Positions 10,079 through 56,700 of a stretch of 64,000 nt of DNA are shown one piece after another. The notes under the pieces were generated by a model. The model saw nothing but the letters and a program-made list of their open reading frames with translations, was not told the origin of the DNA and did no database searches. Made by a program: the position numbers and the translations under genes. Each line of letters opens with the position of its first letter. The first letter of the stretch is position 1. The stretch is from an uncultured virus (IMG/VR IMGVR_UViG_3300034072_000228) (lineage: Duplodnaviria > Heunggongvirae > Uroviricota > Caudoviricetes), in the IMG/VR virus record IMGVR_UViG_3300034072_000228; one strand, given 5' to 3'.

Positions 10079-10286
10079 CTTTCTTCCTCACCACCCTAAT
10101 ACTCCTACTCTTTCCAGGCGTCCGCTTCAAATACCCCTGCTTACACAAACTCTTCACAAGCCTATGCACATTACTCTTACTATCCTGTAAGAGCACAAAC
10201 CTAATATCGTCATACGACGGACCAAAGTGGTACAACTCCCACCAAGTCTTCACCGCCAATAAGACCTTAGCCTCCGCCTTCGTCAT
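10068..10286 (-). CDS. LexA-type winged-helix DNA-binding domain protein without a peptidase domain
   Basis: T....VL..GPSYDDI..S.SNVH..V..L...GYL.R.PGKSRSI resembles the LexA N-terminal domain. Confidence 0.75.
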   Translation of the reverse strand: MTKAEAKVLLAVKTWWELYHFGPSYDDIRFVLLQDSKSNVHRLVKSLCKQGYLKRTPGKSRSIRVVRKKDGS

Positions 10287-11005
10287 GGTTTAAACACAGA
10301 CTCCCGCTGCCATAACGTCATCACAATCTTCTCTCCCCGAATAACTGGATCCCCGCTGTGCCTAGCCGACTCCATCGGCACACCATGCCGATCCACATTC
10401 GCAAAACATACCGCACCCCCGCGCCTTGGATTCACCGTCACATCCATCAGTGGAAATGACGTACCACCCCCTTCATCAGCACACTGCAAATAAACCACCA
10501 CCGTTCCATACCGCTGCCCGCCCATGGACGCATACTCCCTACATCCAGGAGAATCATCAAACCAATCCACATGCGGCCTATACTCCTCTCCAACCCCATA
10601 CTTCAATACCTGTAAATTCTCTCCATACTCCATCGGCCACCCAGTCAACTGTGATAACCGCATCTCCATCTCATAAATAAACCTATTCTCAGCCTTACCA
10701 AACGACGTACCCTCACTCGTCCTAGACTCATCCACCTTATCCCCACCCGCACTATTCACCACCTTATTCCTCTTAAACCCCCTCTTATATGACAACCCTA
10801 TCAATACATCACACTCCACATCACTCAACACACTATCCACCACACTCACATCACCAACCCGCGCCACAGACCTAACCGCCCGCGGTCGGTAATCCAAATA
10901 CCTCCAAGCCTCTTTCCCTATCACCCCATACATAACATCCCACAACTGCCTCTTCGTACAACCCCTCTCCAAACCATCCCTAACCCACTCACTCCAATCC
11001 ATCAT
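10283..11005 (-). CDS. Prolyl 4-hydroxylase-like 2OG-Fe(II) dioxygenase
   Basis: SRTS..E.LQVLKY..G.EY.PHVDWF..GGQR..T...YL....GGGT.FP..H.GDPV..GEK; the HxD...H..K signature of P4H. Confidence 0.88.
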   Translation of the reverse strand: MMDWSEWVRDGLERGCTKRQLWDVMYGVIGKEAWRYLDYRPRAVRSVARVGDVSVVDSVLSDVECDVLIGLSYKRGFKRNKVVNSAGGDKVDESRTSEGTSFGKAENRFIYEMEMRLSQLTGWPMEYGENLQVLKYGVGEEYRPHVDWFDDSPGCREYASMGGQRYGTVVVYLQCADEGGGTSFPLMDVTVNPRRGGAVCFANVDRHGVPMESARHSGDPVIRGEKIVMTLWQRESVFKP

Positions 11006-15813: not shown

Positions 15814-15986
15814 ACCTTCCCCCCAAGTAATAACCTCAATGAATCCATGACCCAGTACTTCGGGCCCGTCGTTATCCCCGCGGCGATGCGCCAGATCGAT
15901 GACTGCGTTACACCAATCGACTTAGCAATCTGGTGATGCGTCATGCCCCTGGCCTCCAGAGCCCTCACAATTTCCTGTGGCGTCAT
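15810..15986 (-). CDS. Cro/XRE-like helix-turn-helix protein (58 aa, not in the ORF track)
   Basis: Manual translation MTPQEIVRALEARGMTHHQIAKSIGVTQSSIWRIAAG...GGKV; ATGA overlaps at both ends. Confidence 0.75.
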   Translation of the reverse strand: MTPQEIVRALEARGMTHHQIAKSIGVTQSSIWRIAAGITTGPKYWVMDSLRLLLGGKV

Positions 15987-17506
15987 ACCATCCTCCTTGC
16001 AAACTTACTCTTTGCATACTTGATGACCTGCTGCTTGATCTTGTTCTGCGTCACCATCCTGGGCTCCACATGAATAGCCTCGTGGAACTTCCACTTAGGC
16101 CAATCCCCCGTCAAATTCTTGTACTGAGCCTTGGCAAATCGCTCAGCCGCCGCAAGATCCCCGCGCTTTCTGTCCTTGCTGATCTGCACAATCTCCCACC
16201 AAACCAGCCGCTTGTCCGCCATCCAATCAGATGACTTTGTGCCGCCAAACTCCACCATCTGACCCTGCACCGAAAGCACATTGCTCATGGCCCTGCGCTC
16301 TGATCCACACGATGGACACACCCGGCCGCGGAACATGTACCCACAAGCCGTGCACTTGATCTCTGCCTTCTCCTTCTCAGTCGGCTCCTTGCGTACCTTG
16401 GCATCCAGCTTTCCGTCTTCCAGTTCCTGTACACCATGGGCAAATACTTCTACCTGATCCTCCCAGAACCGAGTCAGATTGCCTGCGTGATCTAACCAAA
16501 CCGCAAAGTCCTTTCCCGGATGCGGGCGCATGACCCTGCCCATCTGCTGAATATGGCCTGATAATGATTTTCTATATGGCCTTGCACATACACCGATTTT
16601 AATATCTGTAACATCAAATCCTTTTGCTAATGCTTCACAAGATATTAATCCGATTATCTCGCTGTCTGGTTTTCTGAACTCATCGATTAATTCCCTTCGC
16701 CGTTCGTTATTACCATCCTTATAACTGATCTGCTGAAAGTTATAACCCCTCTGTGCAAACTCTCTGCATAATTCCTCACCGTGTGCAACGGTTGCACTAA
16801 ATACAATGGTTTTAACTGGGCCGCCAAAGTTTTTATTCGTTGCTTGTACCCACTCGGTAACAATATCGCCAACGATCTCAACTCCTTGTTTTTCCATGTC
16901 TTTTTCTGCCCACTCGCCATCGAACTTAACCGCGGCGCCGCGCATATCCATCTCTGACTTCGCTACAAACATTTTAACTGGCACTAACCAACCGTCATTA
17001 ATTAGTTTATCGGTTGTTGTGCTGTTTACTACGTTGCTGAATATCTTTGATAATCCCTTGGTAAATGGCGTAGCAGTTAATCCAACAACAACAGCTTGCG
17101 GGTATTTATTAATAGCATCCGCTACAGATTTAAATACCGTATGGCATTCATCTATAACAATTAGTTTAGGCTCATTATCTATTTTGCGACGCGCTAATGT
17201 TTGTGCTGATATAACCTGCACATATTCATACGGACGCCAACGCCAGTGATCTGCCTGAATGACGCCGTGTGGTACGCCATACCTATCCAGTGTTGTGCTG
17301 GTCTGGTCTACCAGTGATACGCGATCGCATATGAACCAAGCTACATTCTGCTTGGCCCTTGCTTCGTTCAGTAGGTAGCTGGCAGATACAGTCTTGCCTG
17401 CACCCGTGGGCGCCACCAGGATCTGCGATCGATGCCCTTTGCGGACACCATCACGCAGTTCATCCAGTGCTTTGATTTGGTAGTCACGCAGACTTTCGAT
17501 CAGCAT
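15983..17506 (-). CDS. Superfamily 2 DExH helicase with zinc finger (RadD/YejH-like)
   Basis: LRDYQ, APTGAGKT, IDECH, GLTATP, QQMGRVMR, CxxC..CxxC. Confidence 0.9.
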   Translation of the reverse strand: MLIESLRDYQIKALDELRDGVRKGHRSQILVAPTGAGKTVSASYLLNEARAKQNVAWFICDRVSLVDQTSTTLDRYGVPHGVIQADHWRWRPYEYVQVISAQTLARRKIDNEPKLIVIDECHTVFKSVADAINKYPQAVVVGLTATPFTKGLSKIFSNVVNSTTTDKLINDGWLVPVKMFVAKSEMDMRGAAVKFDGEWAEKDMEKQGVEIVGDIVTEWVQATNKNFGGPVKTIVFSATVAHGEELCREFAQRGYNFQQISYKDGNNERRRELIDEFRKPDSEIIGLISCEALAKGFDVTDIKIGVCARPYRKSLSGHIQQMGRVMRPHPGKDFAVWLDHAGNLTRFWEDQVEVFAHGVQELEDGKLDAKVRKEPTEKEKAEIKCTACGYMFRGRVCPSCGSERRAMSNVLSVQGQMVEFGGTKSSDWMADKRLVWWEIVQISKDRKRGDLAAAERFAKAQYKNLTGDWPKWKFHEAIHVEPRMVTQNKIKQQVIKYAKSKFARRMV

Positions 17507-18302
17507 GTTTCTTCCAGTAAAGAACTTGTTTCTTCAGCTCGGCACACTCCCGCTGCCACTTGTCTCGGGCCTCGGTAAGGTTGTCGATCGTGGACTGCAT
17601 CTCTTTCATAACCTGGTAGTGCTCGGTATCCCTGAGTGCTGTAAGGATGGACACTTCCTTGGCCAGCTCTTGGTAGTTATCAAGGATCTCTTGGTACTGC
17701 TCGTTTAGTTCGTCATAAGCCACGCGCAGGGCTTCGTGTTTGTCTTGTGACACAGCTGACTTCAGGACCGGTTTAACGGGCGCTGGCGGCACGTTCTCTG
17801 GTTCCTCCTTGTCTACTGCCTTGATAGCCTCACGAAGGCTCATAGCCCCTTTCTTGACCTTCTCTATCACTTCCTTGTCGCCGGACTGCACAACCTTCTT
17901 GGCCCGCTCTACCGACCGCTCACCCACCCCGGCACGCTTAGCCATCTCTTTGGAAGTAATTCCGCCCATGGGCGGAATTTGATACTTTCGTAGGGGGGTA
18001 CCCACACCTGTCCATGTACTGCAAGTGACCACGGCCATGGCTTTTTGTGCTGGCGATAAGTGTCTTCGGTGCAGGTTCAGGTCCATGACATAGGACACAG
18101 GGTCTTGGCCATCAAACTCATGGAAGGATGGATTGATGTCTAGTTGTAAGCAAGCTTTGAATCGATGCCAGCCGTCCAAAATCTTGTTCTCGTACGTCGT
18201 TATAGGTTCACGCTGCCCATGGGCTTTGATGGATTCCAATAGGTCTTGGAAGTCCTCATCGGGCATGTCAGGGAATGCTGCTGATAACTGGTGTCTTTCC
18301 AT
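17484..18302 (-). CDS. parB: ParB-like protein (ParB N-domain, helix-turn-helix, coiled coil)
   Basis: L.ESIK.HGQ.EPI..ILDGWHR..AC..NL.RRHLS..Q; HTH KEMAKRAGVGERSVERAK. Confidence 0.85.
   Translation of the reverse strand: MERHQLSAAFPDMPDEDFQDLLESIKAHGQREPITTYENKILDGWHRFKACLQLDINPSFHEFDGQDPVSYVMDLNLHRRHLSPAQKAMAVVTCSTWTGVGTPLRKYQIPPMGGITSKEMAKRAGVGERSVERAKKVVQSGDKEVIEKVKKGAMSLREAIKAVDKEEPENVPPAPVKPVLKSAVSQDKHEALRVAYDELNEQYQEILDNYQELAKEVSILTALRDTEHYQVMKEMQSTIDNLTEARDKWQRECAELKKQVLYWKKHADRKSA
17956..17998 (+). repeat. Dispersed 43-bp element, copy 2
   Basis: GT-AATTCCGCCCATGGGCGGAATT-TGATACTTTCGTAGGGGGG inside the parB-like gene. Confidence 0.9.
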
Positions 18303-18322: not shown

Positions 18323-19296
18323 CGATCGATTACTTTGGTGCTCTTTGCTACTTTGACTCACTCTCATGCCATGGCTCTCTTCTTACTGGTGGTTCGTTCG
18401 GGTGAAATGGCTCTCTCGTGCCTAATGACTCACTCACTTGGGTTGGTGCTATCGGGGTACATGGTTCGTTCCGCTTCTTTGGTGCTCTCTTGCGTTTTTG
18501 ACTCACTCTGAAATCATGGTGCTCTCGCGATCTCTGGTTCGTTCTCTACTCGTGGTTCACTTTGGTCTTATGACTCACTCTCTTTCGGTGGATCTCTCAC
18601 AAACTGTGGTTCGTTCTGGCAGATTGGTTCCCTCTCTTTTTCTGACTCGCTCGGCCGAATTGGTGCTCTTGGCCAACTTGGCTCACTTCCCTTCCTTGGT
18701 CCTCTCGGGGTTAGTGGTTCGTTCCGTTTTTTTGGTGCTCTCGTTGCCGCTGACTCACTTGCCTTTATTGGTTCTCTCGCGGGGAATGGTTCGTTCTCGA
18801 CCTTTGGTCCTCTCTTTCTGAATGACTCGTTCTCGTGATTTGGTTCTCTTGATCGACATGACTCACTCTATCAACAGTAAAACTTTTAGTGGTCTTGGTT
18901 CGTTAAATAGTTATGGTGCTCTCACATCCAATGACTCACTCACTAACTTTGGTTCTCTTCCCGTTGTTGGTTCGTTCGTTGAAGTTGGTTCTCTCGACAT
19001 GCTTGACTCGTTCCACGACGATGGTGCGCTTAGCTCATGTGACTCGTTTGCCTGGGATGGTTCTCTCCTGTGTGCTGACTCGTTCGATTTCCTCGGTTCT
19101 CTCGATGCTCGTGACTCGTTCGAGCGAATTGGTTCTCTCGATCTTTTTGACTCGTTCATCTCATTAGGTGCTCTTCACAAAAATGACTCGTTCGAAATCA
19201 TTGGTTCTCTCAAGCGCCTTGACTCGTTCCTTCTGTATGGTTCTCTCAGCTACGGTGACTCACTCAGTCCATTTGGTTCTCTCCAAGTTCGCGGTT
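18323..19296 (-). ncRNA. TIGR-like (tandem interspaced guide RNA) array of 27 units of 36 nt
   Basis: 18-nt periodicity of two alternating ~10-nt repeats (sense GAGAG(A/C)ACCA and GAACGAGTCA/GAGTGAGTCA/GAACGAACCA) separated by variable 8-9-nt spacers; 974 bp = 27x36+2; begins at the stop codon of a Nop-domain gene. Confidence 0.9.
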
Positions 19297-20089
19297 AAAC
19301 AGGTGATGGTATGAAATGAGCATGGCCCAAGTGTGCAATCGGGTAAGGCAATGGCGGCTTCGTACCAAAGTGAGCTTCATACCAAGCGCCATGGAGATGG
19401 CTAAGGAAGAGCTTCACCGCATACCTTCTTGCTCGTGCATCAATCTGACCTGGTGGCAAGACACCATTGGATAGGTGCTTGTAAGCCTCAGTCGTCTTGG
19501 CTACTTTCTCTTTGAGTGTGGCTGCCAGCTCCTTGTTATCGCCACGCTCATTACGTTCAATCTCAAAGTTCTTACGCCCCCGGTATACATGACCATAGTA
19601 GCAGTCATCACGGCCAGAGAATTTCATAAAGGATTGACCAGCCTTCCAGCAAAGCGTCTTCAGCCCTGCATTCCATGGGCGCTTCTGTCCCTTCTCCCAT
19701 TTGCTTGTGGGATCTAATCCAGCATAGCGCCAAATATGTCCAACAGTAGGAGCCTTCTCAATATCAATGTGCGCTAACAGCCCCGCGGAAATGACCGGGC
19801 CGATGCCGACAATCTCACGCATCCATGCGCCCATCATGTGGTTCTGTGTGTAAACATCTAACGCCTTCTTGATCTGCCCTTCCAGCCCTTCTGATTGGGC
19901 CGCCAGCCAGCCGATCACAGCGTTAGGCTCATGCGATTCGTCCAGCGCCCGGACTTGGTTCGTGGAACGCTTACGGTCTTCTTGGGCGATGTAGTAGTAA
20001 TCGACCAGAAATCTTGCCTCGTCATCAGACAGGTTCGTGGCTGCGACTTTAAGGTCCTTGGTCAGTTTCATGATTGGTTCTAGGTTCAT
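19295..20089 (-). CDS. tasA: TasA-like Nop-domain RNA-binding protein (IS110 C-terminal-like, no RuvC or HNH domain)
   Basis: N-terminal coiled coil, IVGIGPVISAGLLAHI..HIWRYAGLDP, PWN..LKT, ARRYAVKLFL; no DEDD domain; abuts the dual-repeat array. Confidence 0.85.
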   Translation of the reverse strand: MNLEPIMKLTKDLKVAATNLSDDEARFLVDYYYIAQEDRKRSTNQVRALDESHEPNAVIGWLAAQSEGLEGQIKKALDVYTQNHMMGAWMREIVGIGPVISAGLLAHIDIEKAPTVGHIWRYAGLDPTSKWEKGQKRPWNAGLKTLCWKAGQSFMKFSGRDDCYYGHVYRGRKNFEIERNERGDNKELAATLKEKVAKTTEAYKHLSNGVLPPGQIDARARRYAVKLFLSHLHGAWYEAHFGTKPPLPYPIAHLGHAHFIPSPV

Positions 20090-20325
20090 AGTGTTCTCGC
20101 TAGGTTGAATGGATCGTGCCAACTAAATTCTTTATAGGTGTAAAGCAACTGGTTAAATCTCATGGGATGCTTGGTTGCTACAACACATCCCAGCCCTACT
20201 AAAACTCTCATACGCTCTGCCGCTGTGGTTCTGCTCACGCCAAAGTGTTTTGCTACTTGCTCCGATGTAAAAGGTTCTTTTTGTTCCTTGGCCCATGCTA
20301 GATATGTCTCATCGATTGGTTTCAC
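20086..20325 (-). CDS. Winged-helix/HTH protein
   Basis: GTG start with GGAG RBS; FTSEQVAKHFGVSRTTAAERMRVL. Confidence 0.65.
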   Translation of the reverse strand: MKPIDETYLAWAKEQKEPFTSEQVAKHFGVSRTTAAERMRVLVGLGCVVATKHPMRFNQLLYTYKEFSWHDPFNLARTL

Positions 20326-20560
20326 TGTCTCCCCTTGCTCGTATGGCTTCAGCGCACATCGCTGCAAGCCCCTTTGTGTAATACTTTTGAAAAACTTCTT
20401 GCCGTTCCTCGCACACCTTCGCACACGCCTCACGCTCATGTGCTGCAACAAGTGCGGCGAAGCGTTCAAACACAGGGGCAAGATCACGCTCAACCCATGT
20501 CATATGGTCAAACATTGCACCAGCCTCTCTCGCCATCTTGATAATGTCGTCTCGGTTCAT
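20309..20560 (-). CDS. Small phage protein, IIKMAREA/HEREACAK paralog 1
   Basis: Shares modules with 20557-20787 and 21258-21464. Confidence 0.75.
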   Translation of the reverse strand: MNRDDIIKMAREAGAMFDHMTWVERDLAPVFERFAALVAAHEREACAKVCEERQEVFQKYYTKGLAAMCAEAIRARGDSETNR

Positions 20561-23872: not shown

Positions 23873-24015
23873 ACCATGAGCGATGGTTATACGAAGCCAT
23901 CCTCGCGGCAGAGGACGTTATGTTCTGGATTCACCGTTACCTTGAGGCGCCTAACCCAGAAGTACTACAGCTTTTACAGGCGGCTATGGAAAAGTTTGAA
24001 GAGAGTAAGCCATGA
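23869..24015 (+). CDS. Small hypothetical protein (48 aa, not in the ORF track)
   Basis: MNHERWLYEAIL...; ATGA overlaps at both ends. Confidence 0.55.
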   Translation: MNHERWLYEAILAAEDVMFWIHRYLEAPNPEVLQLLQAAMEKFEESKP

Positions 24016-24881
24016 ACATCACCAATAAATACAACCTGCCCGACGTTCTCATGCGGTTTGCTCGCAATAAGAACTACTCCAAGGGCGATGCCAAGCTATC
24101 TGTCACTGAGCTTATCGACAGCCCACGGGTCGTGGCACTCAAGCACAAGCACTTTGATGAGATGGAACAGGACGTATCCGATACCGTGTTCAGTCTATTC
24201 GGTACGGCTGTCCATCACATCCTTGAGAAGTTCTCAGAACAAGATGTCATCACTGAGCAGCGGTACTTCAAGGAGATTAATGGCTGGAAGATCTCTGGTG
24301 CAATCGACCGCCAGGTTGTCACGCCCCATGGACGGATCATCGAGGACTGGAAAGTTACGAGCAGTTTTGCAGTCATGCAAGGTAAGATTGAATGGGAGCA
24401 CCAGCTTAACTGCTACGCCTATCTTGCCCGTGCCCATGGTCACAATGTCGTCGGTCTAAAGATCAATGCCATCGTTAGGGACTGGGCTCGCAGGAACGTA
24501 GGCCGCCAAGCAGATTACCCAGAAGCACCGATCGTACAGATTGATGTACCCCTGTGGACCTACGAAGAACAGTCGGCTTTTATCAAGAGCCGCATCGCAC
24601 TTCATGCCGCCACAATCATGGACGATCCGCCACTGTGTACACCCGATGAGCGATGGGCTAAGCCTGAAACATGGGCCATCATGAAACCAGGGGCCAAGCG
24701 AGCGCTGAAAGTATTTCTGCTTGAGCAAGAAGCAAAAGATGCAGTAAAGCCAGGACAGGAGATCGTTCACCGCCCCGGCGCTAATACAAGATGTACAAGT
24801 TTTTGTGATGTTAAACAGTACTGTGATTTTGGTAGACAACTAGGAGAAGCAAGTGAAGCAGATAGCATCAGCGCTAGTTAA
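24012..24881 (+). CDS. PD-(D/E)XK RecB/Cas4-like exonuclease
   Basis: GTAVH.ILE, ISG.ID, IEDWKVTS, QLNCY, C-terminal C..FC.V..YC. Confidence 0.85.
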   Translation: MNITNKYNLPDVLMRFARNKNYSKGDAKLSVTELIDSPRVVALKHKHFDEMEQDVSDTVFSLFGTAVHHILEKFSEQDVITEQRYFKEINGWKISGAIDRQVVTPHGRIIEDWKVTSSFAVMQGKIEWEHQLNCYAYLARAHGHNVVGLKINAIVRDWARRNVGRQADYPEAPIVQIDVPLWTYEEQSAFIKSRIALHAATIMDDPPLCTPDERWAKPETWAIMKPGAKRALKVFLLEQEAKDAVKPGQEIVHRPGANTRCTSFCDVKQYCDFGRQLGEASEADSISAS

Positions 24882-27560: not shown

Positions 27561-27843
27561 AAAAGCTGATAAAGCGCACATGGATCGCGTCGCAAGTATT
27601 GGGTGCATCCTGTGCAAACACCTAGACCTTGGAGCGACCCCTGCTCAGATCCACCACATCCGGGAAGGCCAAGGTATGAGCCAGAGGGCTAGCAACTTTC
27701 TGGTGGTTCCTTTGTGCCCAACCCACCATACCGGAAGCCCTGGCGTCCATGGCCTTGGCGAGAGAGGGTTCTATACCCGCTATAAGCTTAGCGAGTTAGA
27801 CCTTCTTGCCATGACCTTGGAAGTACTTCAATCCTCTAAGTAA
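27553..27843 (+). CDS. Ref/DUF968-like HNH-type nuclease
   Basis: GCILC..AQIHH...G.G..PLCPTHH. Confidence 0.75.
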   Translation: MTKKADKAHMDRVASIGCILCKHLDLGATPAQIHHIREGQGMSQRASNFLVVPLCPTHHTGSPGVHGLGERGFYTRYKLSELDLLAMTLEVLQSSK

Positions 27844-30800
27844 ACTGTCTTCTCAAGCAACTCAGGGCGCTTGGCGCTAACAATAATCCCTTTCTCAGCA
27901 CGCTCTGACATCCGCTCACGTTGAGCAAACGAACGCTTGATCTTCTTTTCATCAATTTCATTACCAGGATTCTTGCTGCTGTATCGGATGATCTGCTCAC
28001 CAATATCATCCATCTCTTCATAGTCACCGCTCTTGTAAGCTAAGAACAGTTTTGACAGGAGCCTTTGCTCACGCTGAGCCAGTTGCTTATCAAGACTCTT
28101 AATCTCGCCCATGGCCTCGTAGCCACGCTGAAGATCCTGTGGCGTAAAGCCAAGTGACTGAGCAAAGACTCCCCACAACCCTACGTTTGGTACGATTGGA
28201 TCGCCACGCAAGGTTGTCGCACCCTCATGGTAGAACCTCCAGGCTTTGAAGAAGTCCTTCACAACAGGTGGTGACATCTCTTCCATACCTCTTGCGTAGT
28301 GACCTTCATTGATCTTCTTGATGCCACCAGCCACGTTAAGAACAATGCCTGCCGCCGGCCCAAGCATGTCGATCAGCATATTCTTGGCCCACTCCTCCTC
28401 ATCCTTAGCCATGGCGTCATCACGGAACCAGAGTCCATTGAGGTTAGCAAACCTGCTTACATCAACTTGTAAGATCTCTGACATTGGTCCTTTACTCAGC
28501 GCCCGTGACACGTTGTCACCAAACGCATTTGCCATAGCAACCTTTAGTTCTAGGCTGAAGTCATAAGGATCGTCTTCATCATCAAAGATAAGGTTCATAA
28601 CGCCTTCAATGATGTAGTAAAACGGCAGACCTTCATAACCTGCAAAGAGCGCTGTCATGCCCATAACACCAGTCAGACGCTTCCTTGCAGCTTTCTTGAT
28701 CCTTGTTAGTTCATCGTACTCACGCTTGGCAGCATATCGTTCATCCTCTGATAGACCTTTGTCTTGCGACTTCAGTAGCAGTGCATTCAACTCACGCGTA
28801 TTGGGGAGAGAATCCTTAATTGCCTGTGCGATGAAGGCTGTCATCTGCTGCGCGTAGTTCTTGAACTGTAGCGTTACCTGTGCAATCGGATGACGTAAGA
28901 ACCTAGCCTTAGTTTCTTTTGCATACTCAAAATGAATCTGGCGAATCATTTCTCTTGCGAGCTGTATCGTCTGGGCTTTATTCATCCCCTTGGATTGAGC
29001 AAGCCTAACCACTGCAAGTGCTGTAACTTGGCGGTTTGCAATTTCTGCCAGATTAAATCCATAACCAAGAATCATGGACGCCTTGTCAAGGACGCCCAAC
29101 GACTTTGACTTAAGGATGCTCTTAAAGCCGGTCGCATATAAACCACTCGGGCGTTCAGCTAAACCAGCCAAGGAAAGCGTTTGAGTCTGATTTGTCAGGC
29201 CTTCAAGCTCTGACATGATTTCGGCTTCTTCCTTAAGCTTTGCAGATCCACTCGCCTTGGCTTGTTTTTCTAACATGCCTATCAGGTCATACTGCGCCGT
29301 GCCTTTTTTCCTCGATGACTTTAAATCTGAAAAGGCTTTGAAGATTTCCTTGCTTGCCCTTGCAAACGAAACATCAAACTCACCTGCAAGTGTTGGTATC
29401 CCAATGACCGGCGTTTGGATTAAGTTACCAAGAGCAGAAGCAGGAGCGGTCAAGTAATACAAAAACGCAAAGTTTGTAATCTTTGACCAAACTGGGTGCA
29501 CATCCTTTGGATTGCTGAAGTCAGAATGCTGTGCCTTCAACTCCTGCAAGTAACGGTCACGGGCAATATTCCTTACACCCTTTTGTGAATCAGAGTACCG
29601 CTGCGCCTCACTGATGATGGCATCTAGCGTGGGGCCATACTCCATTCTTGCTAGGTTGTACGCACTATGGAATGCTGAATCAGCAAATGCACGGCGCATA
29701 TCAAGCGTAGCACCGGCAACCTTCTTGGCGTGAATAAAGTTCTTCTGTACAGACAACTCAGGAAGCATGGACAGGTAAGCCTGATACACATCATCCTTAA
29801 GCCTGTTCTTCAAATCCATCGCCCGGCCAGCGGAGTCTGAAAGCGTTGGCTGATCAGTCTTATCGATGGCAGCAAAGATCTTATTGATGAAGGCAGACTT
29901 GATGACGCCCTCGGTGAAAAGCTCTTTGGTATCTACACCACTCTTGAGGTTGATGATCTTGCCGCTTGCTACATCCTTGGCAATACTTTCCTCATGCTTG
30001 CGAAGGTCGGCCAAGGATTCAAACATCTCTTGGTACGGTTTCGTCCCGCCATTAGGTAGTTTGATGTTGTAAGCAATAAAGTACTGACCAAACCTGCTAA
30101 GAGGAAAATACGGACCTTCGCTTTCAAACTTCTGGAACTCATAGTCCAACTCACGCAAACTCTTGGCGCGTTCATTAACGTCCGTGATCTTGGTGGTGAT
30201 GATCCTCTTAAGAATCTCCCTCTTATCATTAAGCTGTTTCTTGTAGAAATCACGAAGCTCCTTGAAGATCGTTTCGCCTTCCGTGCCCTTGATCATCTCC
30301 CAGTTCTTACGGAAAGATTCACTCTTGATCTTTGCTTCTTTCTCAGGAATCGTTGGGTCAATGCCTGACATACGGGCGTCTAGGATTACCTTATCTAACG
30401 CTTCACCCAGCTTAGGATTTTTGTCAGCCCACTGGTCCCACTTCTCACGAAGCTTGCTTGCGGTGGTCAGTTTTTTATCCCTCTCTACCATCATCTGGTT
30501 TAGCACATCGTAATACTGACGTACCTGCGGCAGGTCTTTCTTGGCTAGCTCTGCAATCTGTCTGAGGTTCAGGAACTGCAATAACGTCTGAGCGTTATCT
30601 GCCGTCGCATCCTTAACGTATTGACCAAGCTTTTCCTTGGCAGCCGCAAAGGACGGCGTGTCCTTGATCATCGTATCCATGGACTTCATGCCTTCAGCAG
30701 GCGTGTCATCAATCTTGTCTACGGCGTTGAATAGATCTTGCTGCTCTTGTGGAGATAGATCCTTACCGGCGTCAGTTAATCCTTCAACGCTACGGCGCAT

Positions 30801-33800
30801 GTATTGGATTTCAGTGTCGCTTGGCTCTAGCTGATCTTTCATGAACAAAGCCATCTGGTCCTTCACACCCAGTGGCTTAGCTTCTACGCGTACAGGGGCT
30901 ATGTCTTTGACACTAGCCGTAACCTTATCCATGTACTGCTTAAAGGTTTCATTAGGCAGGTACTTTTGATTGCGTACCTTGGCGTAAAAGGATTTCAGTG
31001 CATCTGCAAGACGCTTGAAGAACCTCTCTACTACCGTCAGTGGCTTCTCGGATGTCGTTGCCCAACGTGATACTTGGTCTGCGTACCACTCGCCAAAGCT
31101 CTTCCAATAAGGAGTTAGATCCTCAAACTTGGTCTTCTCTCCGGCCTGCGTAGTCTTCCCAACACCTCGCGCCCGCATGGACTCGATGTAATCCTTGGCC
31201 GATTTGCCCTTAGAGGAATTCAGAAACTTATCAAACTCATCACGTATGGAACGCTGCGTTGCAAGATCTGCATTCCTGAATGACTCACGCTCATGGATGT
31301 GGCCAAGCTCATGGGCCAATGTCTCTAGCATCCGCGTAACTGATGCGTCCTTGGTAAAGGCTATGTAGTAATTACCATCGGGCATCTTCCTCATAGACCC
31401 AAGGTCATCACTAAGCGCAGCCGAACCGATCGTGCGATGCGGCCCTGTGAACTTACCGCGATTGGCAACTATATCGTCCATGGTTGTGACATAGACGCCC
31501 TGAGGAATCTTAAGAAGTTTCTTCCATCCTGCAATCACACCAGCCAGTTCTGGCGATATGCTTTGCGACATTGCGACACCATCGGCATCAAACTTGATGA
31601 ATGGTGATTTGTCATGCAGAGCTTTGTCTTTCTTTTCAAGCGCTTCCTTGGCCGCAACTAATCTCGCCTTTTGAGGCGCATTGATTAAATTGCCTGTGTA
31701 ATTCTCTACGTCTGTGCGCGAACGGAAAGACCCATTGGCAACTACGTAAACAGGGTCGCCGGTTAGTAAGGCATGTGCCCGGATGAGTGCAAGATCCCCG
31801 TCCTGCCACACCACAACCCCACCCAAATTATCTGCATGAGTTTGCGATGTTTTAGACTGGCCTGCCGTAGCCTTCATCATCGGCTGTGCACGGCGCTCTT
31901 CCAGGTCAGCTAGCGCCTGCTCTATCTCTTGCCGGTTCTCTTGGAAGTACGCATAAGCCTCATCTGTATCAGGCAACGTCTTGTCCATCATCTGCTCGGC
32001 ATAAGACTGAGGCGTATAGGCTACTTCAACTCTGGCAGCTTCACGTTCAGGTCTGGCAGCTTCGCTAGGTTCAGCAACTCGTTCTTCGCCTTCGGGGATA
32101 GCTTGTTCCACTTGCTCATAAACAACTCTTTGCTCATCGGCAGCTTCCGCGGCTTCAAGATTGGCTTCAAGTTCACTGCGAAACTCCCTAATCATGGTTA
32201 ACACTTCGTCTAGCTTGAGATCTAAATCAGCAAGCTCAGCCTTCGTTGTATCGCTTACATAATCAAAATTCAGGATGCGGTCTTTGAGGTACTCAACCGC
32301 CTCGTTTTGCTTCATCTTCTGGTCAAAGACATCCGCTCTATCAACCGCTACAGATGAGTATTCACCAAGCCATGGGTCCAAGAGCCCGCTCACAACAGCC
32401 TTATCAAGGTTCTTGTCAGACTGTGTTTTGCGTATATCCGCCACGTCCTTGGCGCTTACTCCAGCCTTCTTGAGCGCATTCAGGAATGTATCGCCTTGTG
32501 ACTTACGCTTGCGCTCCCTAGCCTCGACAGCTTCCTTTTGTGTCGCTAGTTCACCAGCCTGCTTCTCTAGTTCAGCTATCTGCTCTGTGATCCTTTGATC
32601 CTCTTCGCTTAACGGCGCCGGACCTTCCATGGGAGGAGGCTCAACAAACTCTGGCGGCCCTACCACTTGTTCAGCAACTGCTGGCGGCGCTGCTAACTGA
32701 AGCGTTTCTGATGGCGGCACAGGAATGCTTGTCTCGGCAGATGGCGCTGCTTTTTGAGTAGGTTGCACAGCAGCCGCCTGCTCTTCCCCTAATCTCTTTT
32801 CTATTGCCGGTGCATTGTTGGCGTAAAACTGCTGATCCTCGGGTGTTGTACGAGGAACACCAGCCATAATGTCCGCAACAAATTGCTCGAAATACTTCTG
32901 GTCAACCGGTGTTTCTGTGAAGATTTCGGGCGGCACTTGATAGCCAACACTTGAAGGAGTTGGCGTAAGTGCTTGATCTGTAACGGGTGGGGGGGTAATT
33001 CCGCCCACGGGCGGAATTTGATACTTAAGTAGGGGGTCTGTCGTTTCAGGCTGTGTAACTTGTGGCTCAGCAACAGTGGCTTGCTGAGGTGGCGCGGGTT
33101 GTTCAACAGGCTGTTCAACAGGCATACCGAGACGCTGTATACCTCTGCCAGCCGCACCTAATGCGCCACCGCTTATGGTTCCTGTAAGGCCAGCCTCGAA
33201 ATATTCCCGCAGCCGCTTTGGCGAAAAGAGTTCGTAGTTTTCATCAACATACTTGACTGCAACATTTGACAAAAACTCCTGAGCCGCCTCAGTTAAACCT
33301 TCTTTGGGCGCCGTCTTAGCAGCAGCTAGTCCGATGTCTTTGGCAGCTTCTTTAAATCCAGCACGCTTGGTCATTTCTTCAACCATCTTGGCGCGACCAA
33401 ATCCACCAAGCTTGTTTAGGAATGATGCAGGTGCAACAAGATCAAGGAATGTCTGAAAACTTGCTGCGACAGATGCGACACCTGGACGTAGCTGACCGGT
33501 TTCTTCAAGAACCTTGGAGAATGTTTCAGGAGCGTTTAGCGCGTAGCCTCCAGCACCAGCCCCACCAAGGGCAGCTCGTTGGGTGACTTGGGCAGCACGT
33601 GCAGCGCCAGCAGATTCAGCAGCCGCAGAAGACAAACCTCTGGCAAGGGCAGCTTCTGTAGCAGAGGCTCCAGCCCGTGCAGCAAGACCTCGCGCACCGG
33701 CAGCAGCAACTCCTCCAGGTAAAAGCATAGCAAGTCCATAAGGCAAGGCCTCCGCAATACGCTCATAACCAAAGCCAAGAGCGGATAAAGGACCCGTCAC

Positions 33801-34118
33801 ATCCTCTGAGGACTGATACATACGGGGAAGCCTTTCCTCCCGTTCTGCATATTCCTGCTTGGCTTCTTCCATCAGGCCACGTGCGGCAACATCTTGGCCG
33901 ATCGCAGCAAGCCCCATGGCGGGCAACTCTTTGCGGATGGACGTACCGATATTCTCAAATGTTCTCTGAATCGGGCGGAATGCTACTTGGGATGTGGAAT
34001 ACTGAGGCTCCTGCCCGTATTCCATCTGCATACCGCGAATGATGTTTTGGTAATCCTGTGGTTTTAAACCTTCAGGAAGTCTTACCGCACCATACCCAGG
34101 AACATTAAAGACTGGCAT
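27828..34118 (-). CDS. Large polyvalent or ejection protein with zincin metallopeptidase and PLxRFG-type region
   Basis: 2096 aa, last gene of the virion operon; LAHELGHIHE..EWYADQ; YFPLSRFG. Confidence 0.75.
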   Translation of the reverse strand: MPVFNVPGYGAVRLPEGLKPQDYQNIIRGMQMEYGQEPQYSTSQVAFRPIQRTFENIGTSIRKELPAMGLAAIGQDVAARGLMEEAKQEYAEREERLPRMYQSSEDVTGPLSALGFGYERIAEALPYGLAMLLPGGVAAAGARGLAARAGASATEAALARGLSSAAAESAGAARAAQVTQRAALGGAGAGGYALNAPETFSKVLEETGQLRPGVASVAASFQTFLDLVAPASFLNKLGGFGRAKMVEEMTKRAGFKEAAKDIGLAAAKTAPKEGLTEAAQEFLSNVAVKYVDENYELFSPKRLREYFEAGLTGTISGGALGAAGRGIQRLGMPVEQPVEQPAPPQQATVAEPQVTQPETTDPLLKYQIPPVGGITPPPVTDQALTPTPSSVGYQVPPEIFTETPVDQKYFEQFVADIMAGVPRTTPEDQQFYANNAPAIEKRLGEEQAAAVQPTQKAAPSAETSIPVPPSETLQLAAPPAVAEQVVGPPEFVEPPPMEGPAPLSEEDQRITEQIAELEKQAGELATQKEAVEARERKRKSQGDTFLNALKKAGVSAKDVADIRKTQSDKNLDKAVVSGLLDPWLGEYSSVAVDRADVFDQKMKQNEAVEYLKDRILNFDYVSDTTKAELADLDLKLDEVLTMIREFRSELEANLEAAEAADEQRVVYEQVEQAIPEGEERVAEPSEAARPEREAARVEVAYTPQSYAEQMMDKTLPDTDEAYAYFQENRQEIEQALADLEERRAQPMMKATAGQSKTSQTHADNLGGVVVWQDGDLALIRAHALLTGDPVYVVANGSFRSRTDVENYTGNLINAPQKARLVAAKEALEKKDKALHDKSPFIKFDADGVAMSQSISPELAGVIAGWKKLLKIPQGVYVTTMDDIVANRGKFTGPHRTIGSAALSDDLGSMRKMPDGNYYIAFTKDASVTRMLETLAHELGHIHERESFRNADLATQRSIRDEFDKFLNSSKGKSAKDYIESMRARGVGKTTQAGEKTKFEDLTPYWKSFGEWYADQVSRWATTSEKPLTVVERFFKRLADALKSFYAKVRNQKYLPNETFKQYMDKVTASVKDIAPVRVEAKPLGVKDQMALFMKDQLEPSDTEIQYMRRSVEGLTDAGKDLSPQEQQDLFNAVDKIDDTPAEGMKSMDTMIKDTPSFAAAKEKLGQYVKDATADNAQTLLQFLNLRQIAELAKKDLPQVRQYYDVLNQMMVERDKKLTTASKLREKWDQWADKNPKLGEALDKVILDARMSGIDPTIPEKEAKIKSESFRKNWEMIKGTEGETIFKELRDFYKKQLNDKREILKRIITTKITDVNERAKSLRELDYEFQKFESEGPYFPLSRFGQYFIAYNIKLPNGGTKPYQEMFESLADLRKHEESIAKDVASGKIINLKSGVDTKELFTEGVIKSAFINKIFAAIDKTDQPTLSDSAGRAMDLKNRLKDDVYQAYLSMLPELSVQKNFIHAKKVAGATLDMRRAFADSAFHSAYNLARMEYGPTLDAIISEAQRYSDSQKGVRNIARDRYLQELKAQHSDFSNPKDVHPVWSKITNFAFLYYLTAPASALGNLIQTPVIGIPTLAGEFDVSFARASKEIFKAFSDLKSSRKKGTAQYDLIGMLEKQAKASGSAKLKEEAEIMSELEGLTNQTQTLSLAGLAERPSGLYATGFKSILKSKSLGVLDKASMILGYGFNLAEIANRQVTALAVVRLAQSKGMNKAQTIQLAREMIRQIHFEYAKETKARFLRHPIAQVTLQFKNYAQQMTAFIAQAIKDSLPNTRELNALLLKSQDKGLSEDERYAAKREYDELTRIKKAARKRLTGVMGMTALFAGYEGLPFYYIIEGVMNLIFDDEDDPYDFSLELKVAMANAFGDNVSRALSKGPMSEILQVDVSRFANLNGLWFRDDAMAKDEEEWAKNMLIDMLGPAAGIVLNVAGGIKKINEGHYARGMEEMSPPVVKDFFKAWRFYHEGATTLRGDPIVPNVGLWGVFAQSLGFTPQDLQRGYEAMGEIKSLDKQLAQREQRLLSKLFLAYKSGDYEEMDDIGEQIIRYSSKNPGNEIDEKKIKRSFAQRERMSERAEKGIIVSAKRPELLEKTVYLED
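32995..33037 (+). repeat. Dispersed 43-bp element, copy 3
   Basis: GT-AATTCCGCCCACGGGCGGAATT-TGATACTTAAGTAGGGGGT. Confidence 0.9.
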
Positions 34119-53501: not shown

Positions 53502-53750
53502 TTACCTCTTAGCTGTCAGCGCCGACTTGCGAAATGCTTCTGCCGTGGGCGCACCTTTAGCACCAGGCTTTCTCATTTTCTCACCCGATCCTGCCGCAAT
53601 ACGCTTACGCTTGGCATTAATATTGGCGTATAACCCGACCTCGCCGCCCTGCGCAAACTGCATAAAGTCGGTGTTATCACGTCGGGATTTTAATTTGGCC
53701 TTGGGCATTTTGGAAGGGTTGATATCCCCCATTCCCCTGCTTTTCATCAT
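53502..53750 (-). CDS. Small basic virion-region protein
   Basis: SRGMG.I.PSK..FAQGG..GLYANI.AKR.R..GSGEKMRK.G.KGAP. Confidence 0.7.
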   Translation of the reverse strand: MMKSRGMGDINPSKMPKAKLKSRRDNTDFMQFAQGGEVGLYANINAKRKRIAAGSGEKMRKPGAKGAPTAEAFRKSALTAKR

Positions 53751-56700
53751 ATAAATCTCCCATCAGGGCGCCTATGCCATAGGGTAAATATGGATCTAAT
53801 GGGCGCAGGTAATTAGGATACGGCATTTGGAAACTTCCTGAAAGCTCAGGGGGCGGTACAACAGGCAATTCCCATGGGGGCGGTGGAGGTTGTGTTGGCG
53901 GTGTCGTAACAACTGGCGGAATAACCGGTGGATTTACTACCGGAGGCCTAACTACAGGACCTCCACCAGTTGGAACAGTTGCGGTGTTGATCGTTGTGTC
54001 AGGAACGCCCACTGTTGGAATTTGAAGATCTACAGGAGGCACTCCGCTGGTTGGGGGGCCAAGATCTATGGGCGGAACACCGCCGGGAGGAACAAGATCT
54101 GCCGGCGGGACGTCTCCGGTTGGTATTATTCCGCTAGGAGGGAATAGCTCACCAACAGGTGGTGATACCGATGTATTAATTGTCGAAATATTTAGATCTG
54201 GTGGTGGTATGTCTGGGAAGGGTATGGTATCAATTGGCGGGTATATGCCGCCCGGTGGTTGCAAACCTTCTGGCCGACTTTCTGTTTCTAATTCTAGTTT
54301 GATTGGCGTCCCGTACGCCTCCCCAGTTGCTCCGTTGAAAAATAAATCACCACCAACAACTGGTTTAATCCCTGAAATTCCTACAATTTGTGGGTTACCC
54401 ATACCTGTTGTAACAAAAGCAGTTTGATTCAACGGATCAATACTTTGCACAGTGCCGACTAAAATATCAGGCAACGCCGTGTTAATCGTGGTCTGTCCTG
54501 ATGCTGTATTTAACGGAACATATGACGGCATTTGCACCGTAGAAAGCGTGGAAGGACTCGTGACGGGAACATACTGCTGGAAGCCGTTTTCGTCTATTGT
54601 TTTTTGTACTTGTGTTGCTACACCCTCGCCCATAACAACCTGGCTGCCTGGATTCAACGACGTAGCGCTTGACACACTAGACGCCGGGACAAAAGCTAGT
54701 GTTCCGTTGTTTGTTATGACAATAGAGCCTTTGTCGTTTGACGACACGACCGTACCAATATCAATAGGCCCATTTAAAGCGTTGATATTGATAGATTCAG
54801 CCAGCTTGGTTGACAATAAAGCTGTTAAACCACCTGTATTTTGTAAAGCGGCTATTGCCTCTGGGTCGGCTTGAGTTAGCAAATTCAACGCATTATTTTG
54901 GATTTGCGTAGCATCAATCGTGTTAGGCGTTCCGTCGGCCATCGTTACATTGAATTTGTTCCCATCCAGATTAACGCTATTAACGGTATATCCTTGGCTT
55001 TCGTTATCAAAAACCAAGTCAAATATCGTTTCCGTTGGCAAGCTTATTGAAAACTCATTGTTTACCGGCCCTTTATCGTCGCCTACTACAGTTGCTGTTG
55101 GCTGGTTTGCAATAGACTCTAATAAGATTGGCTGACCTTGATTGTTTGTGATTGGCTTATTATCTGGGCCAGTAAGCAGACCAACGGTTTGTACTACTGG
55201 CGTGACATCCAAGACGTCCTCAATAGTCTTATCAAATCCTTTTCTTGACATTTCATCGGCGTACTCAATGGTTATTACCCCAAGATTTGCCGCTCTTGAT
55301 GCGGCATACGCACCCCCGCCAAGACCTAAAGCTATATTTGTTGCGCCAAATACGATCTCCATTTGAGATGCTACTAATTCTGCTAACTCTTGGGCGTTCT
55401 GTGGAGTTGTGTCTGTGATGCCATGAATCTTGTCATTGGCAATTTGTAGAGCCGTTGTAACACCCTCCGCCACCTGCTCTACACCGTTTATTTTGGCCCA
55501 AGTGCCAACCATGTCTTTAATTTGCTGCTTGCTTGCATTCGCAGGTAGGCTTGCGTACCCATTCACTAGGCTATCCCTTATTGCAACTGATGTGCCAGGA
55601 GCCGCGCCTTTTAAAGAGCTTAAAAGAAACTTATTTCCTACCCATTCGCCAATATATTCAGCAACACCAGAACCTAGAGTTCTTGTTAGATTGTCTACAT
55701 CTGACAAACCCCTAACTTGGCCGTCCCTAAACGTATCGTTCATTGCCACTATGGTCGGTGCTATTGCGCTTGACCAAGCGGTTCCCCCGCTTAATAAAAT
55801 TGATAAGCCAGAAAGAACGCCGGACGACACAGCAAGTGTTTTTTCTACATCAGGGCTTGTAGCAGCAATATTTCGTGCTGCAAAAAAGGCATCTCTTGAA
55901 GCCTCTCCAACGCGTTCCGCCGCTTCGGTTTGATTTAATCCACGAAGCACGCCTTCAACAAATGTTGCCCCGGTTCCTCCGACTGCCATAGCCATGTGGC
56001 CCAAACCGGCAAGATACGGACTTCCTGCTGCCGAGTAAGAATTTAACGGGGCTTCTGTTGGCTGTTTATAAGCCGCGCTAGTAGCTACGATTCCAGCACG
56101 CGTTGACATATCTGAAGCTCTTGCAGCAGCAATATTGTAGGCAGATGCGTTCAGTTGATTTGCAGAACCTGTTTTACTAATCAACTCATTAGCTGCTATT
56201 ACATAACTGCGATAGTCTTCTGGGTCTTTACCGCCCCCTGCCGCTTGGAATCCTTGTAACGTGTACATACCATTAGCTGCTCGCGCTTGCGGTACATCAG
56301 TCGAACCTGGGACTTCCACGCCCGTTGTAGGCGCCTTTGGCGATATTTCATTGCCTCTGTAATCGTAGGTTTTACCGTTAAGCTCGTATCCAGTTACTCC
56401 GCCTTTCGCATTCGTAATTAACGTAGCTTCTTTTGATATTCTGTACTCATTACCTTGGGCGTCTTTCAATACTGTTTTTCCTAGATCACCCTCATAAAAC
56501 TTACCACCATAGCTAAATGAGGCACCTTTTCCGTATGCTAATTCAGCCATCTCCCTAGCTTGCTCAAGCGTCGGTGCACGATCAATCAGCATGGCTTCTA
56601 GCTGGGCTTGATTGAGGTTGTAGTAATCCAAGGCACCTGTTCTTTGCGCCTCTCTTATTTGCGCAATCGCATCTTTATTGGCAAGCTGGCCAACACCCGT

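Follow-up and report, generated by a model that had tools for sequence, protein, structure and literature searches.

The 64,000-nucleotide (nt) window analysed here, the whole stretch under record IMGVR_UViG_3300034072_000228 of IMG/VR, comes from an uncultured tailed phage and carries on its minus strand a gene for a small Nop-domain protein, tasA, followed directly by a long array of short alternating repeats. An original prediction, made from the letters alone, had read the pair as a phage-encoded TIGR-TasA system, in which a nuclease-free Tas protein is guided by an array of dual-spacer RNAs. We found that the tasA product is a solo-Nop Tas protein that has no nuclease domain, and that the locus is very probably a functional TIGR-TasA locus. 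Its central features are:

18323..19297, minus strand: dual-repeat TIGR array of 27 units, 975 nt (from repeat parse, statistics, covariation and relatives)
18869..18895, minus strand: unit 12 of the array, an odd unit with a degenerate loop repeat (AAAAGTTTTA at 18887) and a 9-nt spacer B (from the parse and comparison with related arrays)
19295..20089, minus strand: tasA, encoding a 264-residue solo-Nop TIGR-associated protein (from PDB sequence, profile and fold matches)

A chain parser run along the minus strand from 19297 to 18323 recovered 53 repeats of 10 nt each, spaced 18 nt apart except at two places, where the spacing is 19 nt. Loop repeats (27, consensus GAGAG[A/C]ACCA) alternate with full edge repeats (26, consensus GA[AC/GT]GA[GT/AC]CA), so that each unit reads half edge, spacer A, loop repeat, spacer B, half edge. 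Both repeat types open with (G/A)A and close with CA, and 49 of the 53 match their consensus at 9 or more of 10 positions. At the 5' end, a half edge (TAACCG) holds the TAA stop codon of tasA and is followed by one spacer and the first loop repeat; at the 3' end, the last loop repeat is followed by one spacer and a half edge (GATCG) that terminates at 18323. The parse reproduces the predicted layout of 27 minus-strand units starting at the tasA stop codon, with an opening half edge AACCG overlapping that codon, a closing GATCG, and about 54 spacers of 8-9 nt (52 of 8 nt and 2 of 9 nt). The predicted unit length of 36 nt holds for 25 of the 27 units, while the other two measure 37 nt.

The array pattern is far beyond chance. 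At 9 or more of 10 positions, the degenerate repeat consensus matches 51 times on the sense strand of the 975-nt array, compared to 186 times in the remaining 126,050 nt (both strands counted). Identity at a lag of 36 nt is 0.519 in the array, compared to 0.282 +/- 0.015 in 500 shuffles and at most 0.346 in 605 other stretches of 975 nt. Tandem Repeats Finder alone reports merely 2.3 copies (18768-18849), because the spacers are unrelated. A contig from the DNA run of a second sample shows 0 differences to the window across the array, which is therefore not a one-off assembly artefact. Spacers A and B within a unit are unrelated (mean distance 5.95 versus 5.93 in re-paired controls), as are the units among themselves (mean nearest-neighbour distance 8.33 versus a null of 8.30); both values lie at the null, so we see neither palindromic targets nor recent duplication in this array. 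With two alternating 10-nt repeats and 8-nt spacers, the array is also not a CRISPR array, which would have a single repeat of ~23-50 nt and spacers of similar size. Among the neighbouring genes tested, no Cas family was found except for a match to a Cas4-like PD-(D/E)XK exonuclease at 24012-24881, in the Erf recombination module, and an Rfam search returned nothing relevant.

Read as RNA, both repeat types have ends resembling box C and box D together with a pair between positions 3 and 8, and consecutive edge repeats share an extra, covarying pair between positions 4 and 7. The 3-8 pair stands alone in the loop repeats, where it is present in 26 of 27 and closes a 4-nt loop. In 25/25 internal units, two Watson-Crick pairs join positions 7-8 of the upstream edge to positions 3-4 of the edge after it, yet only 8 of 25 edge repeats are self-complementary. 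GAACGAACCA and GAGTGAGTCA take turns as edge repeats in the array's second half, and this alternation keeps the inter-edge pairs intact. Inspection by eye shows pairing in the first unit as well (AC with GT). Taking 37 arrays together, both inter-edge pairs are kept in 717 of 831 units, as GT/AC (485), AC/GT (108), GC/GC (91) or AT/AT (33). In TasR systems, a box pair is described in both repeats, with an extra covarying pair in the edge that forms between different edge repeats of the processed tigRNA (Faure 2025, PMC12045711); the pairing in the window matches this distinction between edge and loop. The compensatory edge changes argue for a functional minus-strand RNA that is cut within the edge repeat, and pairing in all internal units fits 36-nt RNAs with such ends, as judged from the repeat sequences.

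Unit 12 has close counterparts, within 2 mismatches, in the arrays of six related loci (L001, L002, L003, L005, L006 and L008), and most normal units are not so conserved. Its degenerate loop reads AAAAGTTTTA in the window and GATAGTTTTA in the relatives. This unit may not be a guide; it could, for instance, be an element involved in processing or regulation.

In the tasA product, helices 22-51 and 57-83 form a coiled-coil hairpin, which is joined by a Nop domain and, at the C-terminus, a tail with residues Y249 and H256; the protein contains the predicted motif GIGPV..LL..I..WRYAGL.P. Against PDB sequences, phmmer matched it to TasR (9mty; E = 1.2e-11), TasH (2.4e-9) and IS621 (0.064), and a profile search gave the same order (3.3e-16, 3.1e-12 and 9.8e-4, respectively). 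An AlphaFold2 (AF2) model built with 30 homologues (pLDDT 88.3, pTM 0.84) contains helices only: residues 22-83 make up a long hairpin, and a helical domain comes after it. Searched against the PDB with Foldseek, this model has tigRNA- and DNA-bound TasH or TasR structures in all of the first ten places (E = 7e-7 to 2e-5, TMq 0.57-0.65, 231-258 aligned columns), and next the bridge-RNA recombinases IS621 and ISCro4. The Tas-like fold spans ~250 of the 264 residues. Sequence, profile and fold comparisons thus agree in placing TasR and TasH first and IS621 behind them, in keeping with the predicted Nop assignment.

As the original prediction had also claimed, the protein has no recognizable RuvC/DEDD or HNH domain. 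Its only Pfam match is Transposase_20 (residues 91-130, E = 1.8e-4), Pfam finds neither HNH nor RuvC, and the N-terminal DEDD (RuvC-like) domain of IS110-type proteins is absent both by Pfam and by fold. The open reading frame (ORF) is at most 275 codons long and the stop codon of the upstream gene overlaps the tasA start codon, leaving no room for a nuclease domain; in a MAFFT alignment (A3), nothing in the tasA product corresponds to the N-terminus of SpTasH, which bears the HNH domain. A Nop/Tas fold without a nuclease domain identifies the protein as TasA. The label "transposase", given to it in PHROGs (phrog_4285) and in one NCBI record, is by this analysis a misnomer. In the same alignment, TasA homologues of 312-325 residues from L025, L031, L032, L033, P0024 and P0097 carry a ~50-residue insertion directly after the Nop motif DPTSKW.

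In SpTasH, Y289 and H296 in the flexible C-terminal region are reported to be the catalytic residues for metal-independent maturation of the precursor tigRNA (PMC13421893), and a preprint describes this Y/H dyad as conserved in dual-repeat systems (10.64898/2026.09.09.750476). We translated SpTasH from the Salicola phage record and located both residues within PLYVQEKLGHTG. The MAFFT alignment places TasA PY249PIAHLGH256 (within LPYPIAHLGHAH) on SpTasH LY289VQEKLGH296, with Y249 at Y289 and H256 at H296. Among the 30 TasA homologues, H256 is invariant and Y249 is at least 90% conserved. The C-terminal tail has low pLDDT, as expected of a flexible loop. Together, the aligned and conserved dyad makes it plausible that TasA processes its own precursor tigRNA.

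The original prediction described tasA and the array, both of which stand, and overlooked a ParB-like gene directly beyond the array. Three further minus-strand genes adjoin the pair:

17484..18302, minus strand: tasParB-like gene, 272 residues (from PHROGs, homologue annotation, and AF2/Foldseek)
15983..17506, minus strand: superfamily-2 DNA helicase gene (Pfam ResIII, E = 1e-21, and Helicase_C; phrog_16 DNA helicase, E = 1.6e-71)
20086..20493, minus strand: small helix-turn-helix (HTH) gene directly upstream of tasA (HTH_11, E = 4.6e-4, and PHROG regulator matches)

The ParB-like gene starts with an ATG 21 nt past the last half edge, on the same strand as tasA, and its position makes the locus one of the published TasA-TasParB operon type. 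Its product has a ParB/Srx-type N-terminal domain, an HTH domain and a long C-terminal coiled coil. It matches ParB-like partition families in PHROGs (E = 1.7e-13 and 3.5e-13), and the AF2 model (pLDDT 80.6) has Spo0J (E = 9.8e-6), ParB-CDP, Noc and KorB as its top Foldseek matches. No Pfam family matches it at E 0.01, and nothing relevant appears up to E 10. Among 120 listed homologues, 17 carry PF02195, which we take to be the ParB-like nuclease domain, and 3 have the source name ParB/Spo0J. A ParB-like gene lies 3' of the array in 10 of 36 related loci, with the helicase gene next in all 10; an unrelated 80-residue ORF follows the array in other related loci. A structure prediction for a complex of TasA with the ParB-like protein gave no answer (score 0.00, mark 0.32), which speaks neither for nor against an interaction.

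The helicase gene and the end of the ParB-like gene have 23 nt in common; the former belongs to the replication module and is probably in the same transcript. At the other end of the cluster, the stop codon of the HTH gene overlaps the tasA start (ATGA). Its Pfam matches are weak and all under the curated cut-offs, and it also matches transcriptional regulator families in PHROGs (E = 3e-4). L001-L004, L006 and L008 also have the HTH gene at this place, as L005 does in part, and it is probably the first gene of the tasA operon.

The window as a whole is a tailed-phage genome, in agreement with the claim of a phage-encoded system: it encodes the large terminase, portal, major head protein, virion proteins and endolysin, as well as a helicase, a primase, the Erf and exonuclease recombination module, and a DarB-like giant protein. 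No integrase was found among the window ORFs tested. Two giant ORFs lie on the minus strand, at 53677-62226 (2849 residues) and 27828-34118 (2096 residues). The C-terminal part of the latter matches DarB-like antirestriction proteins (phrog_10089, E = 9.5e-91), and the former shows only scattered HTH-like matches. Also on the minus strand, a homing-endonuclease-like ORF (1524-2516) adjoins the major head gene and a 2OG-Fe(II) oxygenase-like ORF (10283-11005) adjoins the terminase gene.

A scan of viral contigs identified 37 loci whose TasA is 48-100% identical to that of the window, and the array type is the same in all 36 related loci extending as far as the 3' end of tasA, where it lies downstream of the gene in most and upstream in some. 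In close relatives, the stop codon likewise falls inside the first half edge (GTTTAACCA). The related arrays range from 8 units (at a contig end) to 65 units in 36 arrays, so that the guide set of 27 units, which had been described as large, is mid-range for its clade. The literature gives "most often 5 to 15" units per TIGR array (Faure 2025, PMC12045711) and 65,635 tigRNAs in 4,126 dual-repeat arrays, or ~16 each (preprint 10.64898/2026.09.09.750476). The largest array in our set (L026:4858-7158) has ~65 units, parsed as 130 half-units in three adjoining chains.

Spacers are almost fully exchanged between phages whose flanking genes are 92-98% identical. A locus with a 98% identical TasA has 11 of 53 spacers in common with the window, and other loci have 0-6. 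When the arrays are aligned unit by unit, a few conserved units keep their order between blocks of unrelated ones: units 8 and 18 recur exactly in 6 other distinct arrays each, unit 6 recurs within 2 mismatches in 8 arrays, and 17 of the 27 units are unique to the window. In the arrays downstream of tasA in L003, L006, L008, L015, L016 and L033, near-duplicate units (0-2 mismatches in 16 nt) lie exactly two positions apart. In a six-unit array on a Propionivibrio contig (L040:3759-3966), units 2 and 4 have the same spacer B and their spacers A differ by 1 nt. These cases hint that arrays grow by duplication of 72-nt two-unit blocks followed by divergence, which would keep alternating edge variants paired.

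The TasA family comprises 6,438 proteins at E <= 0.001 in a collection of 5.8 billion proteins. A megablast search with the locus returned no match among 50,697 phage records, and tblastn with TasA against the same records found 82 with distant matches only, all below 60% identity (best 28%); except for such distant relatives, the family is absent from cultured phages. A Candidatus Propionivibrio aalborgensis assembly has contigs encoding two TasA relatives of 70-72% identity. In three metatranscriptomic runs, which belong to two studies, RNA-library contigs match parts of related arrays as well as tasA and the ParB-like gene.

Operons of tasA and tasParB with dual-repeat arrays of 10-nt repeats between the two genes have been described (Faure 2025, PMC12045711). 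The window locus shares with them a solo-Nop tasA and a parB-like gene, a 10-nt edge/loop array in between, and variable flanks, and no difference from the operons as described there was established; the text of that paper assigns no function to TasParB. At least three entries of Table S1 of that paper ("all TIGR systems") are identical to the window TasA over its whole length, and the table also lists relatives from the source datasets of several of our related loci. The locus is therefore already catalogued as a TIGR system: its identification is a correct rediscovery and not a new kind of system.

SpTIGR-TasH of Salicola phage CGphi29 (PDB 9w03, 9w04 and 21kl) is likewise phage-borne, has 10-nt repeats of very similar sequence and 8-nt spacers, and shares the Nop fold (Foldseek E = 7e-7, TMq 0.65) and the Y-x4-LGH processing motif. 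Unlike the window TasA, with which it is 34% identical over 83 residues, SpTasH has an N-terminal HNH nuclease and cuts both DNA strands. FpTIGR-TasA of Flavonifractor plautii resembles the window system in its solo-Nop protein, downstream dual-repeat array and C-terminal Y-x4-LGH (PMC12045711), but has 9-nt spacers (18 nt in total), other repeat sequences and a bacterial contig as its source; the text of that paper mentions no ParB partner for it. What the IS110/IS621 recombinases have in common with the window protein is a Nop-like domain at the C-terminus that binds RNA (Pfam Transposase_20; Foldseek E = 1.2e-2, TMq 0.45), and IS621 aligns with the TasA model only through this domain. In contrast to these recombinases, the window protein has no DEDD/RuvC-like domain and its RNA partner would be a guide array, not a single bridge RNA.

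Taken together, we regard it as highly likely that the window carries an intact dual-repeat TIGR-TasA system of the TasA-TasParB operon type, embedded in a tailed-phage replication module. The claim of an intact TasA locus with a dual-spacer array has held up on the Nop/Tas fold, the lack of a nuclease, the 36-nt dual repeats and the truncated edges at both array ends. On the model we favour, the HTH gene, tasA, the array, the ParB-like gene and the helicase gene would be transcribed as one minus-strand RNA, as published work on relatives suggests. A TasA dimer would bind each unit through the shared repeat ends (GA... and ...CA, the box D and box C equivalents), and the C-terminal Y249/H256 dyad would cut the precursor inside each edge repeat without metal, yielding 27 different 36-nt tigRNAs. 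Related proteins are reported to behave in this way: FpTasA binds 36-nt RNAs cut in the middle of the edge (Faure 2025, PMC12045711), and SpTasH processes its own precursor (PMC13421893).

Each tigRNA would then direct the TasA dimer to double-stranded DNA, with the 8 nt of spacer A pairing with one strand and the 8 nt of spacer B with an adjacent stretch of the other. Published systems have the two spacers pairing with neighbouring target stretches on opposite strands, and tolerate gaps of 1-2 bp (PMC12045711). From the cut positions and 3' overhangs given in that paper, we infer that one target strand should read 5'-spacer A followed by the reverse complement of spacer B-3'. With no nuclease domain, binding without cleavage is expected, and the model would end in stable binding that blocks transcription or replication of the target. 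Binding with repression and no cleavage is, on this analysis, the outcome we lean towards. The ParB-like protein would probably be an accessory at or after the DNA-binding step. The original prediction had called the biological role unknown; it is less so given that MbTasA, another nuclease-free TasA, is reported to bind target DNA in a guide-dependent manner and to repress transcription reversibly in E. coli (preprint 10.64898/2026.09.09.750476).

We searched for targets with all 27 guides in both arrangements, as spacer A plus the reverse complement of spacer B and as the reverse complement of spacer A plus spacer B. This kind of search, proposed with the original prediction, covered the window (all 27 guides), related phage DNA (the 629 distinct units of all arrays) and viral contigs (units 8 and 18, the two most conserved guides), and yielded no natural target. 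At 2 mismatches, 10 matches appeared in the window; we counted them as chance, since a rough chance estimate is ~5. Against viral contigs, unit 8 gave 40 matches in 30 unrelated groups, many at gene starts, and unit 18 gave 33 matches spread evenly over gaps of 0, 1 and 2, including one group of 4 homologous coding sites. We read the matches of both units as chance. The four sites of that group lie in homologous viral coding regions of L042, L049, L052 and L072 that are 74-79% identical; in each, the stretch encoding a conserved ...YLAQLAEAEFHKV... peptide contains the exact two-spacer target of unit 18, interrupted by a 2-bp gap. They form the only clustered match found, and most likely go back to a single coincidental match that the relatives inherited. 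As long as the host is not known, databases of this size do not allow a 16-nt target to be identified, and for the same reason natural targets are described as generally not yet determinable (preprint 10.64898/2026.09.09.750476).

Several observations weigh against a working TIGR-TasA system. No guide has a target in the 64-kb window at up to 1 mismatch with gaps of 0-4, and the 629 distinct units of all arrays have 0 exact matches in 338 kb of related phage DNA with arrays masked, where re-paired controls have 0-2. RNA processing, RNA binding and DNA binding by the window TasA are expected by analogy with relatives (TasH and TasR) of ~22-34% identity, and MbTasA may be of the stem-loop type rather than the dual-repeat type. 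The box D equivalent is (G/A)A(G/A), not the UG of TasR arrays, and the edge repeats end in TCA or CCA; divergence of box D from UG is allowed if it covaries (Faure 2025 section 8, PMC12045711). Within the array, unit 12 has a degenerate loop, the last unit keeps one of its two inter-edge pairs, and the first half edge reads CCG (AACCG) where relatives have CCA (AACCA). The RNA-library contigs cannot prove transcription, as they do not show strand, ends or level and may reflect DNA carry-over. Finally, a promoter and terminator scan, in which sites were no more frequent than in shuffles, found no terminator-like site 3' of the array, unlike "typical" arrays of Faure 2025. The array ends in truncated edge repeats and runs on to the ParB-like start codon with no such site in between, which agrees with the variant of that paper in which the array lies between tasA and tasParB (PMC12045711).

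The irregular units would also be expected if TasA and its array were a decaying relic, recognizable yet no longer working. However, tasA has an unbroken ORF with 98% identity to relatives, its product retains the catalytic Y/H along with every invariant Nop residue, and the array keeps both pairs in all internal units and near-consensus sequence in 49 of its 53 repeats. Unit 12, one of the irregularities alongside the altered first half edge and the half-paired last unit, is itself conserved in 6 relatives and is therefore not random decay; we consider a relic very unlikely. Another explanation holds that the repeats act as DNA, as centromere- or iteron-like sites for the ParB-like protein or a replication protein, and that the adjacency to tasA is secondary. 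Centromeres and iterons of plasmids and phages typically have short direct repeats set close together, and the array does lie directly upstream of a ParB-like gene with an HTH domain, in a replication module with a helicase and a primase. Yet the array follows tasA and not parB, being next to tasA in 36 of 36 related loci where just 10 have the ParB-like gene, and it begins inside the tasA stop codon in close relatives. The strand-specific compensatory changes in the edges (25/25 units) suit an RNA and would be meaningless for a protein-binding DNA site. The repeats also closely resemble those of the SpTasH array (Table S1 of Faure 2025), whose tigRNA guides direct DNA cleavage (PMC12045711). 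These observations make a role as DNA sites extremely unlikely.

Could the array instead encode a protein? Plus-strand open frames of 127 and 158 codons (18438-18821 and 18822-19298, in the same frame with one intervening stop codon) cover most of it, and a 36-nt period is divisible by 3, as a protein of 12-residue repeats would require. However, the longest stop-free stretch of 154 codons compares to 143.8 +/- 38.5 when spacers are shuffled and repeats held fixed, and is reached by 97 of 300 shuffles. Related arrays are likewise at shuffle level in 14 of 15 segments, the exception being one L026 segment with an unusually long open frame of 171 codons (a length reached by 18 of 300 shuffles). 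The two 37-nt units shift the frame, no codon-position substitution pattern was seen between related arrays, and the near-total exchange of spacers between phages with 92-98% identical flanking genes is not how proteins evolve. We thus found no evidence, in the shuffle test or in spacer turnover, of the protein-coding selection that the original prediction had named as grounds for refutation, and we assign this explanation next to no probability.

Within the favoured TIGR-TasA reading, a more speculative extension concerns the ParB-like protein. TasA-tigRNA complexes might serve as programmable loading sites for it in place of a fixed parS, making the locus an RNA-guided ParB system. Since the array lies between tasA and the parB-helicase pair on what would be one transcript, cutting of the array by TasA would also sever and tune expression of the downstream replication genes. 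We consider this extension improbable. If it were true, a target genome (host, rival phage or plasmid) would be marked by the 27 guides at many sites, where the ParB-like clamp would load and spread, and would silence, compact or mis-segregate the marked DNA.

The locus provides a clean and complete natural example of the least understood TIGR subtype, in which a ParB-like partner accompanies a nuclease-free TasA, and its phage has a recognizable genome. Its alternating edge variants amount to a natural compensatory-mutation experiment, and support pairing of the two ends of each processed tigRNA. The 36 related phage arrays, of graded divergence, contain conserved "core" guides among quickly replaced ones, along with near-duplicate units. 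These core guides and near-duplicates offer a handle on how TIGR arrays gain guides and on what the guides target.

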